A stretch of DNA of 34,639 nucleotides, taken from positions 1 through 34,639 of the forward strand of contig JAUVYD010000001.1 in assembly GCA_030603265.1 (NCBI GenBank), read 5' to 3'. The notes below the pieces were generated by a model. The model searched no databases. It was not told the DNA's origin and saw only the letters and a program-made list of their open reading frames with translations. The stretch is from Dehalococcoidia bacterium. Lineage in GTDB: Bacteria; Chloroflexota; Dehalococcoidia; GIF9; AB-539-J10. Each line of letters begins with the position of its first letter. Positions within the stretch are counted from its first letter, which is position 1. This document shows, piece after piece, positions 12,226 to 34,639 of this stretch. The position numbers and the translations under genes were made by a program.

Positions 12226-13398
12226 ATGAAGCTGCTGGTAATAGGACTTGGACAGTGTGGCGGGCGGATTGCTGACAGATTCGCTCGCTTGAACAAGAGA
12301 GGACATGCTCTCCGTGGGATGGACACCCTCGCCGGAGTTTTCGCAGTCAACACGGATGTTGCGGATCTCAGCGGACTGCGCACAATCAGACCTGACTACA
12401 AGCACCGCATACTCATCGGTGCGCAACGTACGAACGGCCATGGCGTGGGAAAGATCAGCGAACTGGGTGCCGAGATAGCGAACGAAGACGTCGACAAGAT
12501 AATTGACGCGATTCGTACGGCCGAAGGATTCTACGAGACTGACGCGTTCCTGCTGTGCGCCGGGGCTGCGGGTGGTACAGGGTCTGGCGCGATAGGGGTG
12601 CTGACCAAGCATCTGAAGGAGCGGTATATCGGGAAGCCTGTCTATGACGTGGTGGTCCTGCCGTTCCGCCAGGAGGAGACCACTGAGACCAGGACCATCT
12701 ACAACACGGCAACGTGCTTGAAGTCAACGTACCTGGTCGCTGACGCCGTCTTCCTGATTGACAATCAGCGTTACGTGAAGAAGGATTCCCCCGCCGAGAA
12801 CAACCTGAACACGATCAATGCGAAAGTCGCGGAGCCGTTCTATAACATGCTGTGCGCGGGCGAGGAGACCAAGAGCCGCTTCGTTGGCTCCAAGACACTC
12901 GATGCCGGAGACATCATCCAGACTCTCACCGGATGGACGGTCATTGGAGGTGGCATGTCGAGGCTGGAGCGGCGACTGCCGTTCTGTGGGCCGAAGCGCG
13001 ACTTCCGTGACAAGATGATTGAAACCAGCCGGGCCTCGCATGCGATGGATCAAGCCATAAGCGAGCTGTCAATGACGATTGACCCGAGTGATGTGGGAAG
13101 GGCTCTCTATCTCCTCACGGCCCCTGCCAAGGAGATGAGTATGGACATTCTCAAGCAGCTTGGAGACAACCTCAAGAGCCTTGCGCCAAACTCCCTCATC
13201 CGGAGTGGTGACTACCCGCGTGATAGTCGCCAGGTTGATGTCACGCTCATCATGTCAGAGATTGGCAGCATTCGTAAGATAACTGACTACTTCACCAAGG
13301 CGATTGATCTTATCTCGGTGATGAAGGCGAAACGCGGGCTTGGCTATCAGACGAGAAGGCTCGAGGAGTCCTTCGATGAGATCCCAGTTCTGCTGTGA
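12226..13398 (+). CDS. Tubulin/FtsZ-superfamily GTPase, CetZ-like (390 aa)
   Basis: T1 loop GLGQCGG (aa 7-13, nt 12244-12264). Tubulin signature GGTGSG (aa 116-121, nt 12571-12588). LIDN (aa 177-180). T7-type loop TLDAGDIIQTL (aa 224-234). The overall N-terminal layout (MKLxxIGxGQxGG...NGHGVGxxxELGAEIAxEDVD...DAFLxxxGxxGGTGSG) matches my memory of archaeal CetZ. An in-frame TAG at 12214 fixes ATG 12226 as the first possible start. Confidence 0.85.
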   Translation: MKLLVIGLGQCGGRIADRFARLNKRGHALRGMDTLAGVFAVNTDVADLSGLRTIRPDYKHRILIGAQRTNGHGVGKISELGAEIANEDVDKIIDAIRTAEGFYETDAFLLCAGAAGGTGSGAIGVLTKHLKERYIGKPVYDVVVLPFRQEETTETRTIYNTATCLKSTYLVADAVFLIDNQRYVKKDSPAENNLNTINAKVAEPFYNMLCAGEETKSRFVGSKTLDAGDIIQTLTGWTVIGGGMSRLERRLPFCGPKRDFRDKMIETSRASHAMDQAISELSMTIDPSDVGRALYLLTAPAKEMSMDILKQLGDNLKSLAPNSLIRSGDYPRDSRQVDVTLIMSEIGSIRKITDYFTKAIDLISVMKAKRGLGYQTRRLEESFDEIPVLL

Positions 13399-14076: not shown

Positions 14077-14175
14077 CTATGCCCTCCTTTGCAGTTGTCC
14101 TTCATCGATGTCTCTTGTGTGAGAGTGTATCACGTACTGCTGGCCGAATCCCCTGATGTGGAGGCAGCGCCGGCA

Positions 14176-15738
14176 TCATTCATCTTCCTGGCTGTCATCG
14201 GACCTCTCGAACGGCCTGTCCTTCTCTGATGCGTACATCTTCGAGAGGAACTCGAGCCGCGACCGCATGTCGCGCTTTGCGGCGTGCGGCGCTGGCTTCA
14301 GTCTCGACTCGTCCGGCTCGATTCGGCTGAGGGCCTCTTCGAATAGCTTGGAGGAGGAGGGTTCGGATGGTTCTTGGGCCTCCTGGTTGACCTTCTCCGC
14401 GCCCGCCGCGGTTTCGTCAAAGACGCGAACGGCTGCGCGAGCAGCCTTGCGAGCGGTCCTGGTGGTCTCCTCGGCCTTCTTGATGGCCTCCTGGAGAACC
14501 TTTGCTGACGCGACTACAGTGTCGCGCGCTGCGGCGATTGATGCCTCGGTGGCTTCTCTCGCGACGCGTCTCGACTCCTCTGCCGCCCGCAGTGATTCGG
14601 TGCCGTTTTCCTCGGAGCGACGTACGGCCTCTGCTGCCAGCCTCCGCGCCTCCTCCTCCGCCTCGGCAGCGAGTTTCCCGATCTCTTCAGCCCGGGCTGC
14701 CGATTCCTCGGACGCCTTCAGGGCGTCTTCCGCCAGCCTCATGGCTGCCGACGTAACCTCTTCGCTGCGTCTGACGGCCTCGCGAGACGAACGCTCCGCT
14801 TCCTCGGCCTTCCCCATGGCCTCCTGCGATGCACGAGACGCGGACTCGACCGCCTCCTTGCTTGCCCTTACCGATGTTTCGATGCGGGCGACCACTTCGT
14901 GTGACGACTTGATCTGCTGGCCGGCCTCACGCTGGCTTAGCTTCCCTGCTTCTTCCGCTCGCCGAAGGGCGGTTTCAAACGCACGGCTGGACTGCGCGGA
15001 GGACGCATTCGAGGCAGCAATTGCCTCTTCGGCCCGGGCAAGCGCCTCTTCGAACGCCGCCGAAGACAGAGCGGCTGAATCGGAGGCCGACTGGAAGACT
15101 CGCTCCGCCCTTGCGACTGCCTTCTCGGATGCCTTCTCAGCGTCTCGTGACGCCTTCTCGGACGAGCGGGCGACTCGCTCGAGTGTGATGCGGGCCTCAT
15201 AAGAGGTTTTGACGGCTTCCTCAGAGGCCCGTGTGGCCTTCTGTCCCTCTTCTTCGGCGCGCGCCACCGCTTGCTGGGCGGCACGCCGGGCTTCTTCCGC
15301 CTTCTCCTGCGCACCCTGCGCAGCCTTCTCGACCCTGCCCAGCAATTTCTGAGAGGAAGAGACTGACTCCTCTACGGAGTCCATCGTCTGGTTCGCGAGT
15401 TGCTCAAGCAGGGCGACTGCCTCTTCAAATGAGCGAGCGCTCTCCTCGGCGGCCTCAGTGGACGACTGAACGGACTGCTCGGCTGCAGCGATGGCCTCCT
15501 GAGCCCTCGAGTTGGTCTCATTCACTGACTGGCTGACGGCGGACGCCTTCTTTGCAGCGTCCTCGGCCATCTGTCGCGCCTCTTGTGCCGTGACCATCGC
15601 CTCGCGGCCGATGTTCTCGATTCTGGTGACGGCCTGTCCCGAGGCCTTGCGGGACTGCTCCGCAGCCTGGCGCGCAGCCAGGTTCATCTGTTCGGCTCTC
15701 GCTACCGCCTCTTCGAAGGATGGTGACTCGCTGTCCAT
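14176..15738 (-). CDS. Ala/Glu/Ser/Arg-rich low-complexity alpha-helical repeat protein, 520 aa, function unknown
   Basis: Long ORF with its own near-consensus promoter and a GGAAGG SD. The motif F-E-(E/T)-A-(V/L)-x-(R/L)-x-E recurs at F8, F104, F229, F254 and F466. The tail is acidic (..SDDSQEDE). The antisense 348-aa ORF is a compositional shadow. Confidence 0.7.
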   Translation of the reverse strand: MDSESPSFEEAVARAEQMNLAARQAAEQSRKASGQAVTRIENIGREAMVTAQEARQMAEDAAKKASAVSQSVNETNSRAQEAIAAAEQSVQSSTEAAEESARSFEEAVALLEQLANQTMDSVEESVSSSQKLLGRVEKAAQGAQEKAEEARRAAQQAVARAEEEGQKATRASEEAVKTSYEARITLERVARSSEKASRDAEKASEKAVARAERVFQSASDSAALSSAAFEEALARAEEAIAASNASSAQSSRAFETALRRAEEAGKLSQREAGQQIKSSHEVVARIETSVRASKEAVESASRASQEAMGKAEEAERSSREAVRRSEEVTSAAMRLAEDALKASEESAARAEEIGKLAAEAEEEARRLAAEAVRRSEENGTESLRAAEESRRVAREATEASIAAARDTVVASAKVLQEAIKKAEETTRTARKAARAAVRVFDETAAGAEKVNQEAQEPSEPSSSKLFEEALSRIEPDESRLKPAPHAAKRDMRSRLEFLSKMYASEKDRPFERSDDSQEDE

Positions 15739-30834: not shown

Positions 30835-32541
30835 TCAAGCCCGGGAGATGATGCGGAACTCGGCGACGTCGACCACGCCGAGGTCTGTGAGCCGGAGTTC
30901 CGGTATCACTGGCAGGGCGAGGAATGAGAGCAGCGCAAATGGTGCGGGTGGCAGTGTTCCGAGGTAGTGTGCCTCCGCCTGGACACTGCGCATCTGCTCC
31001 AGCACCCGCGTGAGCGGTGCAGGTGAGAGAAGTCCGGCGACAGGGAGTGGCAGGGCGGCTCTCACTTCGCCATCCGCGAATACGACGAGGCCCCCCTGCA
31101 TCTCGACCAGTGCCCTGAGCGCGCCGAGGATGTCTTCATCTGTGGTTCCCACTGCGATGAGATTGTGCGAGTCGTGGGCGACGGAACTCGCCAGTGCCCC
31201 TCGCTTGAGCCCGAATCCTGTTACGAGACCCTTGCCGATATTGCCCGTTCGGCGGTGACGCTCGACGACCACCAGCTTGAGGATATCTCTCTCCGGGTCG
31301 GACACGATTGCGCCACCGGAGACCGTGGGCATCATGTAGCGCTTCTTCGTGATGATCTGGCCCGGCACGAGTTCGATGACGGGGAACTCGTGGCCGTCGT
31401 GTGGCATGGAAAGCCCCTGACTATCCAGCAGCCCTGTGCGCACTGTGTCGGTCAGCTCCGCATCAGGAGGAGCTGACTGGAACAGCGGCCGGCCACACTC
31501 CGCGACCAGCTTCCCCCGGTAGAAGACTTTGTCGACGGCGAAGTCTGTCAGGTTTTGTACGGTCACGAGGTCGGCACGTTTGCCGGGACAGATGCACCCT
31601 CTGTCGTGAAGTCGAAAGTAGCGGGCCGGATTGATTGTGGCGAGCTGTATGGCGCGTACGGGGTCGAGGCCGAGCGCAATCGCCTTGCGGACTACGTGGT
31701 CGATATCGCCTTCCTCGTCCAAGTCGGCGGCGCTTCTGTCGTCAACTACGAACATGCAGCGCGGATAGGTCAGGTCCGTCACAAGCGGCAGAAGGGCCTC
31801 GAGGTTCTTCTCGGACGAGCCCTCTCGTATCATGATATGCATGCCCTTGTGCAGCTTCTCAAGGGCTTCGTCATAGCTTGTGCACTCGTGGTCGGACATG
31901 ATGCCGGCTGCCATGTAGGCATCGAGGGAGTGTCCCAGGAGACCCGGGGCGTGCCCGTCGACGGGCTTGCCCGCTGCGGCCTCAATCTTGTCGAGCACAT
32001 CCTGGGCGCCGGCCAGGACGCCGGGGTAGTTCATGACCTCACCGAGACCAATGACGTCGGGCTCGGCGAAGAGAGCGCGGATGTCATCAGCAGAGAGCAC
32101 CGCTCCTGACGTCTCCAGCGGTGTGGCCGGTACGCACGAAGGCGCCATGAACTTCATGTCGAGAGGGAGGCTTCGTCCCCAGCGCATGCAGAATTCAAGG
32201 CCGGCCTTCCCGCAGACGTTGGCAATCTCGTGCAGGTCGGTTACCACGGTCAGTGTGCCGTGAGGGACGACGGCTTCGGCGTATCTGGCAGGGTGGAGCA
32301 TGGAGCTCTCGATGTGGGTGTGTCCGTTTATCAGACCAGGCGCAACGTATGCACCCCGGAGGTCGACCACATCTCGTGCGTTGTTGTAGCTACCGAGTCC
32401 GGCGATGGTGTCGCCGCAAATGGCAATGTCCGCATCCTCCACTACTCCGGCCAGCGTGTTGATGACCCTGCAGTTTCTCAAGATGAGGTCAGCGGGTTGT
32501 TCCCCTCGCGCAACGCGAATCAGCTCAGGCGTGTTCATCAT
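30835..32541 (-). CDS. ade: Adenine deaminase
   Basis: Amidohydrolase metal motif GLINGHTHIESS, then HAPG.., SDHE.., and a C-terminal Ade domain. I start it at the twin ATGs at 32536-32541 (MMNTPELIRVARG..). The longer ORF to 32757 would run through hpt. Confidence 0.88.
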   Translation of the reverse strand: MMNTPELIRVARGEQPADLILRNCRVINTLAGVVEDADIAICGDTIAGLGSYNNARDVVDLRGAYVAPGLINGHTHIESSMLHPARYAEAVVPHGTLTVVTDLHEIANVCGKAGLEFCMRWGRSLPLDMKFMAPSCVPATPLETSGAVLSADDIRALFAEPDVIGLGEVMNYPGVLAGAQDVLDKIEAAAGKPVDGHAPGLLGHSLDAYMAAGIMSDHECTSYDEALEKLHKGMHIMIREGSSEKNLEALLPLVTDLTYPRCMFVVDDRSAADLDEEGDIDHVVRKAIALGLDPVRAIQLATINPARYFRLHDRGCICPGKRADLVTVQNLTDFAVDKVFYRGKLVAECGRPLFQSAPPDAELTDTVRTGLLDSQGLSMPHDGHEFPVIELVPGQIITKKRYMMPTVSGGAIVSDPERDILKLVVVERHRRTGNIGKGLVTGFGLKRGALASSVAHDSHNLIAVGTTDEDILGALRALVEMQGGLVVFADGEVRAALPLPVAGLLSPAPLTRVLEQMRSVQAEAHYLGTLPPAPFALLSFLALPVIPELRLTDLGVVDVAEFRIISRA

Positions 32542-33061
32542 CAATCTCGATGGTGTAGATGTCAGGCAGGTGGCGGAACTTGTTGTCGAAGTCCAGCCCG
32601 TAGCCGACGACGAACTTGTCCGGAATTGTGAATCCGAGGTAGGCAATCTCAATTGGCGTCTCTCTGCGGCTGGGCTTGTCCGCGAGGGCGCAGATGGCAA
32701 CGGAGCGGGCCCCTGTGTCCTTCGCGTGGCGCAGGACATAGTTGGCGGTGTAGCCACTGTCGATTATGTCCTCCACGATGAGGACGTCCTTGTCCTTCAC
32801 CTGTATTGTCATGTCCTGCAGCAATCTGATTCGGCGGGAGCTTTCGCTGCCACTGTCGTAGCTCGAAACGGTCACGAAATCCACCTCGAGAGGAATCTCG
32901 ATCTGCCGCACCAGGTCCGCCATGAAGATGAAAGCGCCCTTGAGTATTCCGACGGCGACCAACTGCCTCCCTCTGTAGTCCTCTGAGATCTGGCCGGCGA
33001 GCCGGGAGATGGCTCGCTCGATGTCGTGGCGTGGGATGAGCAGACTAAGATGGTCCTTCAT
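32525..33061 (-). CDS. hpt: Hypoxanthine(-guanine) phosphoribosyltransferase
   Basis: GILKGAFIFMADL, PRPP motif VLIVEDIIDSGYT, and FVVGYGLDFDNKFRHLP. ATGA overlap with the upstream gene stop at 33058-33061. Confidence 0.9.
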   Translation of the reverse strand: MKDHLSLLIPRHDIERAISRLAGQISEDYRGRQLVAVGILKGAFIFMADLVRQIEIPLEVDFVTVSSYDSGSESSRRIRLLQDMTIQVKDKDVLIVEDIIDSGYTANYVLRHAKDTGARSVAICALADKPSRRETPIEIAYLGFTIPDKFVVGYGLDFDNKFRHLPDIYTIEIDDEHA

Positions 33062-34512
33062 GCAGTTAGCCTCGCCTGGCTGTGTCCGCCCCAATCCTGT
33101 CTCAGTTCCCCGATGAATGGGAGGTTTCGGTACTCGCCCTTGTAGTCGAGGCCGTAGCCCACAACGAATATATCCGGAATCTCGAATCCTACGTAGTTGA
33201 GCTTGACGTTTGCCAGTCTCCTGGCCTTGCGGTCAAGCAGAGAGCACACGCGAAGACTCGCCGGCTTGTGCGCGGCCAGATGAGCAAGCACGTAGTTCAG
33301 TGTCATGCCGGTGTCCACGATGTCCTCAACCATGAGAACATGTTGTCCCCCGATGGGAGAGTCGAGATCCCGCGTGATTTTCACGACCTCGCCGTCGCCG
33401 CTGTAGTGTGAGATGTCCATGTAGTCGACCCTCACGGGGATCGAGATGTACTGCATCAGATCGGACATGAAGCACATCATTCCCTTGAGCACGCCGATGA
33501 CGACGATTCTCTCTCCCGCGTAGTCGCGCGATATCTTGCGTGCGATGGCGCGCACTCTGCGCTGTATCTGTGTGTGGCTGTAGAGCACCCTCCCGACTCC
33601 CTCGACCTTCGCCTCTCCCATCGAGCCGTAGCCATACTTCGCCAGCAGCTTCATGAAGTCCTTCTTTGTCAGCAGCCGGATGTTAATATCAGGGTACTGC
33701 TCCCGTAGTCGCCTGACCTTGCGGTTCTTGAGAGTAATCAGGTCCTGCTTCATCGTCGTGAGTTCGACGTACATGTCAAGTTCGGGCAGGTAGAAGTCAG
33801 GCGTGAACATCTGAGAGATTTTGGCCCCGTTCCAGGCGAGGGGGAAGGAGCGTGGCTCGTACAGCCACTCAATCTGATAGAAATCGAGCAGGCCGGCGAA
33901 TTCTGCTTCGCTCTCGTGCGCGAACTCGGTTGGCTTCAAGGGATTCACTGCTATCCGGGGTGGGGTTGAGACCTCGGTGGCCTTCGCCCGTGACTTGTCG
34001 ATACGGTCTCTGAACTGGGCAAGCTGTGCCCTGTCGAGCAGCACGGCGCACAAGTTGGCGGACGCCTTCAGGAAGTCCTTCTCCACCTCCGTGAGTTCCC
34101 TGGACTCCTTTGAGTAGATTCGCAGCTCTCCTATCGTATCTTCTCCAAGGATGACCGGAATCCCGGCGATGAAGAGGACGTTCTGGGATTTGGCCACTTC
34201 CGGGTGTTGCACCCTCTCGTCGGTTGGCGCGTGGGTGACGACCACGATGTTTCCGGCCAGCACCTCGGGCAGACTTTTTCGTGCATCGAGCGGACCCTTT
34301 CTGATGTAGAGGTCGCTTAGCCCATAGGCGCCGACGGTCGTGAGGTATTCCTTCTTCGAATCCAGGAGGAGAATCCTGCAGCCATTCATGTCTGTCGCCT
34401 TGGCGACAGTCCTTGCTATGGCATTGTAGGTCCGACGGAAAGTGAGCCCGGAGTTCGCTATGACTGCAATCTGCTGCAGTCCTGTGTAGTGCCGTCCCCT
34501 GGATGTAGTCAC
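33058..34512 (-). CDS. Three-domain fusion: N-terminal GAF domain + central restriction-endonuclease-like (PD-(D/E)xK-like) module + C-terminal HPRT domain
   Basis: aa 15-160 are GAF-like (..CRILLLD..LTTVGAYG..GIPVILGEDTIGELRIY..). aa 195-295 contain E200/E202..PD239F..VE250LT..K255. aa 305-470 are a full HPRT domain (GVLKGMMCFMSDL, VLMVEDIVDTGMT, FVVGYGLDYKGEYRNLP). GTG start lies 7 nt after GAGGAGGA. Confidence 0.8.
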   Translation of the reverse strand: MTTSRGRHYTGLQQIAVIANSGLTFRRTYNAIARTVAKATDMNGCRILLLDSKKEYLTTVGAYGLSDLYIRKGPLDARKSLPEVLAGNIVVVTHAPTDERVQHPEVAKSQNVLFIAGIPVILGEDTIGELRIYSKESRELTEVEKDFLKASANLCAVLLDRAQLAQFRDRIDKSRAKATEVSTPPRIAVNPLKPTEFAHESEAEFAGLLDFYQIEWLYEPRSFPLAWNGAKISQMFTPDFYLPELDMYVELTTMKQDLITLKNRKVRRLREQYPDINIRLLTKKDFMKLLAKYGYGSMGEAKVEGVGRVLYSHTQIQRRVRAIARKISRDYAGERIVVIGVLKGMMCFMSDLMQYISIPVRVDYMDISHYSGDGEVVKITRDLDSPIGGQHVLMVEDIVDTGMTLNYVLAHLAAHKPASLRVCSLLDRKARRLANVKLNYVGFEIPDIFVVGYGLDYKGEYRNLPFIGELRQDWGGHSQARLTA

Positions 34513-34533
34513 CGCCCGTTCCTCCTCACGCGG

Positions 34534-34639
34534 CTACGAGCACGTGGTGTAGCCACAGGATACGCAGATACTGCAGCCCTCCTGGTGGATGAGAGTCCCA
34601 CCGCATTCGGGGCACTGAGCCGAGACTCCCTGCCGCCGG
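34534..34639 (-). CDS. nrdJ: 3' end of a CDS running out of the window; C-terminal zinc-ribbon typical of class II (B12-dependent) ribonucleotide reductase NrdJ
   Basis: The minus strand translates to ..RRQGVSAQCPECGGTLIHQEGCSICVSCGYTTCS* with TAG at 34534-34536. The CPECG-x9-C-x2-C-x2-CG tail is, from memory, characteristic of NrdJ C-termini. Only 35 codons are visible. Confidence 0.5.
   Translation of the reverse strand, partial: RRQGVSAQCPECGGTLIHQEGCSICVSCGYTTCS

Follow-up and report, generated by a model that had tools for sequence, protein, structure and literature searches.

A GAF, endonuclease-I-like and HPRT fusion gene in a Dehalococcoidia bacterium and the almost constant linkage of its middle module to HPRT

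Results

A gene combining a GAF, an endonuclease-I-like and an HPRT domain

Contig JAUVYD010000001.1 of the Dehalococcoidia bacterium assembly GCA_030603265.1 (34,639 nt, analysed over its whole length in forward-strand coordinates and further referred to as the window) carries near its right end a gene in which a GAF domain, a module related to phage T7 endonuclease I and a hypoxanthine phosphoribosyltransferase (HPRT) domain are joined in a single open reading frame (ORF; Table 1). A preliminary description of this DNA had proposed a three-domain GAF, endonuclease-like and HPRT fusion at 33058–34512, and the locus indeed holds one 484-aa gene with all three parts at the proposed coordinates. 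Domain searches on each of the segments subsequently yielded GAF, endonuclease-I-like and HPRT identities.

Table 1. Features of the fusion locus in the window
Feature	Position	Strand	Remarks
GAF / endonuclease-I-like / HPRT gene	33058..34512	(-)	484 codons open, GTG start, TGA stop
GAF sensor domain, aa ~15-165	34018..34470	(-)	Pfam GAF/GAF_2 and fold match
Endonuclease-I-like module, aa 195-296	33625..33930	(-)	PHROG, profile and fold matches
HPRT domain, aa 309-470	33103..33588	(-)	TIGR01203, Pribosyltran
Shine-Dalgarno-like AGGAGGA	34520..34526	(-)	7 nt 5' of the GTG at 34512, read from sequence
nrdJ-type class II ribonucleotide reductase, 3' end	34534..34639	(-)	contig stops inside gene; last 106 nt retained
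Canonical stand-alone hpt, 178 aa	32525..33061	(-)	TIGR01203, 200 bits
Adenine deaminase	30835..32541	(-)	Adenine_deam_C (E 2e-63) and Amidohydro_1; likely ATG at 32541

The assignment of the N-terminal part as a GAF domain is backed by both sequence score and fold. Pfam GAF (PF01590) matched aa 27–157 (E 4e-7; 31 bits vs. a cut-off of 22.4) and GAF_2 (PF13185) scored 28.7 bits (vs. a cut-off of 28.6), with both models together covering aa 24–160. A full-length AlphaFold (AF2) model, built from a 26-sequence alignment, had a predicted local distance difference test (pLDDT) score of 54, so that only its GAF part (pLDDT about 85–93) was usable and the inter-domain geometry could not be read from it. 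Foldseek matched the GAF part to the GAF domain of PtsP (3trc; E 6.8e-10, TM-score 0.84), and also to that of NifA (8jrc). Alignment A1 contains 27 invariant GAF residues, yet no assignable ligand signature was found among them.

The middle module, which had been likened to the PD-(D/E)xK fold and more specifically to DUF559/Vsr-like proteins, does have a restriction-endonuclease fold, but its relative is T7 endonuclease I; DUF559 and Vsr were rejected as fold-level neighbours only, endonuclease I being closer. The module matched two PHROG phage endonuclease families (E 3.5e-8 and 5.7e-7), and a profile of 100 module sequences matched the solved structures of T7 endonuclease I (3cae, with an E of 2e-4, 2pfj, and 1m0d). 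The Pfam model Phage_endo_I (PF05367) scored 15.1–18.5 bits on the module, i.e., under its cut-off of 29.1. Moreover, an AlphaFold model of the module based on the family alignment (pLDDT 83.6) was matched by Foldseek to viral models named ‘Endonuclease I’ (E 8.8e-7; 46 matches with E ≤ 1e-3), and its matches in the PDB were PD-(D/E)xK domains only (e.g., those of the R2 restriction-like endonuclease, Bax1, PvuRts1I, AbaSI, and TnsA), which were weak (E 0.01 at best). Taken together, these matches identify the module as homologous to the endonuclease I of phage T7.

In the profile alignment, the E20, D55 and E65 residues of T7 endonuclease I correspond to E202, D239 and E250 of the module, and K67 corresponds to Thr252. 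The catalytic set is incomplete, with the three acidic residues present and the Lys replaced, so the ExK element had rightly been called degenerate. The metal-binding Glu/Asp/Glu set is kept in 450–452 of the 452 unique module sequences and the Thr at the position of the catalytic Lys in 451 of them; E202, E219, D239, E250, T252, T253, K262 and K265 individually recur in 449–452. A basic KNRKxR helix is conserved as well. The module is the best-conserved part of the protein, with 56% invariant columns in alignment A1 (vs. 44% for HPRT and 18% for GAF), and its near-invariant residues look like a working site. NCBIfam returned no match for stand-alone module proteins.

The C-terminal part is a complete HPRT domain. 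TIGR01203 (HGPRTase) scored 189 bits on the fusion (vs. a cut-off of 150) and 192 bits in a six-frame search of the genome, Pfam Pribosyltran matched aa 311–457 (E 2e-26), and the solved HGPRT 1r3u could be aligned over aa 300–472 (E 5e-48). The phosphoribosyl pyrophosphate (PRPP) motif VLMVEDIVDTGMT is intact, with E396, D397 and D400 present, and K343, F449, D456 and R462 are retained in addition (residue roles, including those of the catalytic Asp, human D137, and of K165, according to PMC2228302; see also PMC6783271). Most catalytic residues are thus retained, but two differences from free HPRTs emerged. The loop II of the fusion (SHYSGDGEVV) is three residues shorter, with its Tyr kept and the adjoining Ser replaced by His; in the neighbouring hpt, the loop reads SSYDSGSESSRRI and is canonical in sequence as well as in its span of 18 residues. 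Furthermore, Arg428 (in LLDRK) occupies the position of the Lys that contacts O6/N7 of the purine (human K165).

Conservation of the fused reading frame

The preliminary description had cautioned that the long ORF might consist of separate genes joined by an assembly error or frameshift, which is not borne out by the comparative data. GAF, module and HPRT are found in a single frame in 33 species genomes, complete chromosomes among them, and at least 120 database proteins of 444–491 aa, all with Dehalococcoidia or Chloroflexi as source, show 62–91% identity over 90–99% of their length. The junctions between the domains are conserved across relatives as well, including the linker between module and HPRT (KYGYG...). 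What speaks for an artefact is the state of the source bin, a metagenome-assembled genome (MAG) of 251 contigs with signs of two strains, i.e., two purF genes and a second, partial copy of the fusion on contig G000:C160 (L002 1501–2322, vs. 33691–34512 in the window), covering its first 274 codons. Both copies share 89.7% nucleotide and 87% amino acid identity, and the adjoining nrdJ 3′ ends share 97.6% nucleotide identity. The MAG is probably a composite of two related strains, with the assembly breaking inside the fusion gene. However, the ratio of nonsynonymous to synonymous substitution rates (dN/dS) between both copies amounts to 0.25, which argues against an artefact. The fusion is a real and conserved gene, and the hardly conceivable scenario of an artefact is refuted by its relatives.

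Three long representatives (P0125, P0222 and P0123) were considered as possible new architectures but rejected, because their tails are out of frame, and they were taken as assembly or frameshift products. In the databases, members of the family (P0003–P0121) are named ‘hypoxanthine phosphoribosyltransferase’ by NCBI and in many cases ‘bifunctional protein TilS/HprT’ by JGI. Since the partner of HPRT is an endonuclease-I-like domain, the latter label is a misannotation.

The module is tied to HPRT across bacterial phyla

In the 80 best module loci from species genomes, the module was tied to HPRT without exception, being fused to it in 74 loci (33 GAF-module-HPRT and 41 module-HPRT fusions) and encoded by the gene immediately preceding a separate hpt in the remaining 6. 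In four of these six, the module is the C-terminal part of a protein that starts with a (d)CMP-kinase-like P-loop domain (PF13189). Further module/hpt gene pairs, with a 4-nt overlap, were found beyond the 80 best loci. The link is not absolute, as three genomes carry the module without a nearby hpt (L123 on G012:C31, L124 on G025:C1, and L125 on G082:C17). Judging from their N-terminal sequences, the neighbours at these loci look like a divergent rpoB, a formate-tetrahydrofolate ligase together with a methylthioadenosine/purine nucleoside phosphorylase, and a preQ0 transporter of the YhhQ type.

A search with the module by itself returned 1,832 representative clusters and at least 517 stretches from species genomes. 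In a sample of the phylum, the module was present in 36 out of 121 genomes, spanning most Dehalococcoidia families and patchy elsewhere (these genome counts refer to samples of related, partly incomplete MAGs). Titled carriers also include MAGs of Dormibacterota, Acidobacteriota, Methylomirabilota, Planctomycetota, Tectomicrobia and Actinobacteria, and culturable bacteria among the relatives of Sphaerobacter or Thermomicrobium possess a module-HPRT fusion, too. Across hundreds of bacterial species, the module is an almost constant partner of HPRT. The architecture had been put forward as undescribed, with which the literature agrees, as no published account was found in literature on GAF-HPRT in Dehalococcoidia, endonuclease I-HPRT or NrdR-HPRT; it is not rare, however, given that the module-HPRT link recurs in more than 500 species genomes.

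What precedes the module-HPRT core depends on the lineage, and is either a GAF domain, a P-loop nucleoside monophosphate (NMP) kinase-like domain (in which case hpt is separate), an Ala/Pro-rich tail, or nothing. The Ala/Pro-rich N-termini were seen in GAF-less relatives (L052, L055, L062, L064, L071; P0141, P0161, P0126), measure 80–290 aa, and hold repeated Arg/Gly boxes (e.g., RRRRGRRGSGS, RGSRGGRKHRK and RGRGGRQTD) of a kind typical of RNA-binding disordered tails. A Pfam search of four of these proteins (P0141, P0161, and the ORFs at L055 and L064) found no domain in their Arg/Gly-rich N-termini.

At a separate locus (L126, G066:C20, 1882–3571 on the minus strand), the (d)CMP-kinase-like protein, the module and hpt are encoded by three successive overlapping ORFs, with another paralogue of the kinase-like protein close by on the opposite strand.

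Clustering of the neighbouring genes of 85 loci revealed no universal third partner besides HPRT. All other recurrent neighbours were lineage-specific, namely the nrdR-nrdJ pair (about 20 loci), UPF0182 (8 loci) and carB (5 loci). The tandem arrangement of the fusion with a second hpt is restricted to the sub-clade of the window.

Fused HPRT domains form one divergent clade

A phylogeny calculated for 121 HPRT domains united the 76 fused ones without exception in one clade (SH-aLRT support of 97), nested among the HPRTs that adjoin a separate module gene. The second hpt of the window fell outside this clade and clustered with the free hpt of other Dehalococcoidia. No position passed a strict filter for residues that separate module-linked from free HPRTs; what sets both groups apart is found in loop II and at a small number of catalytic positions.

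Loop II spans 18 residues in 26 of 29 free HPRTs (SSYG..T..SG.V) and in 10 of 14 HPRTs adjacent to a module gene; in fused HPRTs its span ranges from 12 to 32 residues (mostly 15–16) and its sequence is varied. The Ser beside the loop Tyr is present in 30/31 free and 14/14 adjacent HPRTs, and in none of the 35 GAF-fused ones. The O6-contacting Lys is found in all 31 free HPRTs and is an Arg in 19 of the 90 module-linked HPRTs, a substitution that may be tolerated. Moreover, the catalytic Asp is changed to Asn in 17 of the 41 fusions without GAF, these 17 making up one subclade. Finally, two module-HPRT proteins, P0265 (332 aa) and P0168 (286 aa), have lost the acidic PRPP motif (VLLLMGVVSTG and VVIATDVVNTG, respectively) and are likely pseudo-enzymes.

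With regard to gene complement, 15 of 16 fusion-bearing genomes also hold a free, higher-scoring hpt, and one complete genome of 1.0 Mb (G002) holds the fused HPRT only. In a family of five genomes with the module gene beside hpt (f14), this hpt is the sole HPRT in each genome and fully canonical. Among the 45 genomes without module, 38 have one HPRT-class gene, 6 have none and 1 has two.

A free HPRT in a Thermomicrobiaceae genome (G127:C1:46225–46716) was noted to lie within a 711-aa open frame, a possible further fusion of HPRT that might represent a genuine TilS-HprT.

Neighbouring genes and other observations in the window

The order of the genes at the locus is nrdJ, fusion, canonical hpt and ade, in agreement with the tandem hpt and the adenine deaminase that had been described behind the fusion. 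The nrdJ-type frame, of which the partial translation terminates in ...CPECGGTLIHQEGCSICVSCGYTTCS*, closes with a TAG (34536–34534) 21 nt ahead of the GTG of the fusion. A near-identical copy on contig G000:C160 extends into a reductase ORF of 492+ aa. The stop of the fusion overlaps the start of hpt in an ATGA (33061–33058), and the ATG of ade lies inside the 3′ end of hpt (17-nt overlap). Because such short gaps and overlaps join the genes, nrdJ, fusion, hpt and ade were regarded as one tightly coupled unit. The same arrangement was seen in a 72% identical relative (L086) on a 736-kb contig with the order mraZ-rsmH-ftsA-ftsZ-nrdR-nrdJ-fusion-hpt-ade, in which the gene 5′ of the fusion has Ribonuc_red_lgN, Ribonuc_red_lgC and TSCPD domains and is preceded by nrdR, and in which the adenine deaminase orthologue counts 566 aa. 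A scan for promoters and terminators yielded nothing informative within the operon. The idea of purine auxotrophy was dropped, because purF and purH are both present.

Elsewhere in the window, a 390-aa protein of the tubulin/FtsZ family is encoded at 12226–13398 (plus strand), the C-terminal half of which matches CetZ_C (E 1.8e-11), a domain mainly known from archaeal CetZ cell-shape tubulins but present here on a bacterial contig of the Dehalococcoidia type. In addition, a 520-aa ORF without a Pfam match (14176–15738, minus strand) overlaps a 348-aa ORF on the opposite strand (14156–15202).

Discussion

A specialised HPRT paralogue as a candidate regulator

The reading that we favour, though at somewhat less than an even chance, is that the fusion is a specialised HPRT paralogue sensing the status of purines or PRPP, that the module coupled to it is directed at nucleic acids, and that GAF supplies a further input. 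We favour it because the module is so regularly tied to HPRT, the fused HPRT domains form one clade and have drifted, a free hpt has been kept, the module combines an acidic set with a basic helix, and there are precedents among proteins with a phosphoribosyltransferase (PRT) fold. The HPRT domain would bind PRPP, 6-oxopurines or their nucleotides, and possibly guanosine tetra- or pentaphosphate ((p)ppGpp), and would thereby report purine status, while the GAF domain would read a second small molecule. The endonuclease-I-like domain, probably as a dimer, would form the output, and would bind, or conceivably cut, structured nucleic acid. In this way the protein might act as a regulator of nucleotide metabolism of the ‘trigger enzyme’ type, like PyrR, the PurR of Bacillus or TilS-HprT, with the neighbouring canonical hpt carrying the bulk of the reaction. 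As to its history, an ancient module/hpt gene pair would have been fused once, after which the fused HPRT would have drifted at positions that control turnover and oligomerisation, and its carriers would have retained or acquired a free hpt.

The sequences themselves show which domains are present, how the module is linked to HPRT, that the catalytic Lys is a Thr and that fused HPRT domains have diverged, whereas sensing, regulation and the binding of nucleic acids are inferred from them. Such binding is hinted at by the ancestry of the module among junction nucleases, its KNRKxR helix, and the Arg/Gly-rich tails of some relatives. The preliminary description had offered two readings, i.e., ligand-regulated salvage or a PRTase domain repurposed as regulator. 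Neither is settled, and the comparative evidence leans to the regulator because loop II is degraded, a subclade carries the Asp-to-Asn change, the PRPP motif is lost in rare members, and a free hpt accompanies nearly all of the surveyed fusions.

A number of observations weigh against a sensing paralogue. Neither a target among nucleic acids nor a conserved operator or RNA element came to light, and an Rfam scan of the window and 19 related loci revealed no riboswitch or leader near the gene. The HPRT domain of the window scores above the HGPRTase cut-off, with E396, D397, D400, D456 and R462 kept, and may simply be active. In the f14 family, the module partners a sole and fully canonical HPRT, i.e., a true enzyme. 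The invariant acidic residues, in turn, speak more for a site of catalysis or metal binding than for a remnant that does no more than bind DNA. Because loop II of bacterial HPRTs is also the dimer-dimer interface (PMC6783271), its decay in the fusions could mean a changed oligomer rather than lost catalysis. Lastly, all fusions stem from one origin, and the association between fusion and divergence is therefore without independent replicates.

Alternative readings

Several of the above points would fit a ligand-gated salvage enzyme, the main though rather doubtful alternative, in which HPRT is fully active, and in which the module, as a dead nuclease, serves as a dimerisation or allosteric scaffold that relays the state of the N-terminal sensor to the active site and replaces the tetramer interface controlling loop II. 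Such an enzyme would account for the TIGR01203 score, PRPP motif and catalytic Asp of the window domain, for the module-linked hpt of f14, and for G002 making do with a fused HPRT. The conserved linker between module and HPRT is consistent with it as well, as are the N-terminal partners, since GAF and the P-loop kinase-like domain are both small-molecule binders. As loop II of bacterial HPRTs determines how they oligomerise and how sensitive they are to (p)ppGpp (PMC6783271), its changes in the fusions may likewise follow from a new quaternary structure. A scaffold, however, has no need for an invariant Glu/Asp/Glu set, a Thr-Thr pair and two Lys residues across phyla, nor does a gated enzyme explain the second, free hpt in 15 of 16 fusion genomes, the Asp-to-Asn subclade, the rare members without PRPP motif, or the three genomes in which the module lies far from any hpt.

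The near-perfect conservation of the canonical metal ligands, together with that of two Lys residues on the next helix, could also point to a catalytically active module, with the activity of a metal-dependent nuclease or phosphodiesterase, in which K262 or K265 replaces the missing Lys, and which would degrade nucleic acid or a nucleotide-like compound and so feed nucleotide pools alongside HPRT, the (d)CMP-kinase-like protein, NrdJ and Ade. Other PD-(D/E)xK enzymes, such as BamHI and BglII, tolerate a non-Lys residue at the third position, and T7 endonuclease I helps to recycle host DNA. The neighbours and fusion partners are moreover all enzymes of nucleotide metabolism (nrdR-nrdJ at 20 loci, carB at 5, P-loop NMP-kinase-like, hpt and ade). 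Nevertheless, we consider such a recycling function improbable. HPRT takes free bases and not the products of nucleases, and the neighbour clustering linked no nucleosidase or phosphorylase consistently to the module. T7 endonuclease I itself requires Lys67, and its junction complex 2pfj is, according to its sequence, that of the K67A form. An unregulated cytoplasmic nuclease on a housekeeping enzyme would furthermore be a hazard.

A role of the fusion in anti-phage defence or as a mobile-element protein, with PRTase effector and nuclease, finds some footing in the phage endonuclease ancestry of the module and in the PRTase-type domains that serve as effectors in some defence systems, but is extremely improbable and, like the artefact dealt with above, effectively excluded, given that PADLOC identified no defence family and only generic PD-(D/E)xK models (E 1e-4 to 6e-3), that the syntenic context is a core one (ftsA-ftsZ-nrdR-nrdJ), that inheritance looks vertical across a class, and that the HPRT domain is a true member of the HGPRTase family.

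Implications

Returning to the sensing paralogue, it can be extended, more speculatively and with considerable doubt, to module and HPRT in general, whether fused or paired, which might constitute a widespread and unrecognised class of purine-status-responsive, nucleic-acid-directed regulators or ribonucleoprotein enzymes, with a domesticated phage junction endonuclease as effector, HPRT as sensor, and variable N-terminal inputs. HPRT belongs to textbook biochemistry and is known to be controlled by (p)ppGpp. In several hundred species or more (of Chloroflexota, Dormibacterota, Acidobacteriota, Methylomirabilota and others), it is accompanied by a module that is conserved as tightly as HPRT itself, that has no Pfam or NCBIfam family and on which no published study was found. 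The labels that these proteins currently bear mask two thirds of their length. Once solved, the role of the module could reveal either a new regulation of purine salvage, or a new family of metabolite-sensing nucleic-acid-binding proteins derived from a domesticated phage nuclease.

Comparison with known systems

The C-terminal 165 aa of the fusion align end to end with bacterial Hpt/HprT (TIGR01203; 1r3u, 2geb), and both have a PRPP loop and a catalytic Asp in common, along with the residues that bind purine and pyrophosphate. The fusion differs by about 300 extra N-terminal residues that make up two domains, and by its place in a separate clade.

T7 endonuclease I (gp3; PF05367; 3cae, 2pfj, 1m0d, 1fzr) and the module have the same fold and are homologous over about 90 residues, sharing the pattern E...YE...TPDF...(V/L)E, a basic stretch and a (Y/H)PE(L/V) strand. 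However, where the phage enzyme has its catalytic Lys67, the module has an invariant Thr. The module is moreover cellular, located in a core genome context and nearly always tied to HPRT, and nothing points to a junction-resolving role. For the GAF domain, those of PtsP (EI-Ntr; 3trc, 3ci6) and NifA (8jrc) are the best structural matches as well as the best weak sequence matches, but the output domains of these proteins are entirely unlike those of the fusion.

PyrR and the PurR of Bacillus likewise couple a type I PRT fold that senses PRPP or nucleotides to nucleic-acid binding, with the PRT-fold domain of PurR sensing PRPP and (p)ppGpp (PMC8789054). Like PurR, a number of the fused relatives lack catalytic residues, but the PRT domain of the window still looks catalytically competent. 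PyrR models scored 23–37 bits on the fusion (vs. cut-offs of 138–268), and Pfam matched neither the PuR_N winged helix nor another helix-turn-helix domain on it, and the resemblance to PyrR and PurR is an analogy only.

Finally, in Bacillus subtilis, HprT and TilS, which is encoded upstream in an overlapping gene, together form a DNA-binding activator of ftsH (PMC8152036). The fusion of the window differs from this pair in that TilS has a PP-loop domain, while Pfam matches on the fusion are limited to GAF, a weak Phage_endo_I, and Pribosyltran. TilS-HprT nonetheless resembles module-HPRT in that HPRT is paired with an upstream-encoded protein from overlapping genes, and provides the example of such a pair with a nucleic-acid-directed moonlighting role (PMC8152036).

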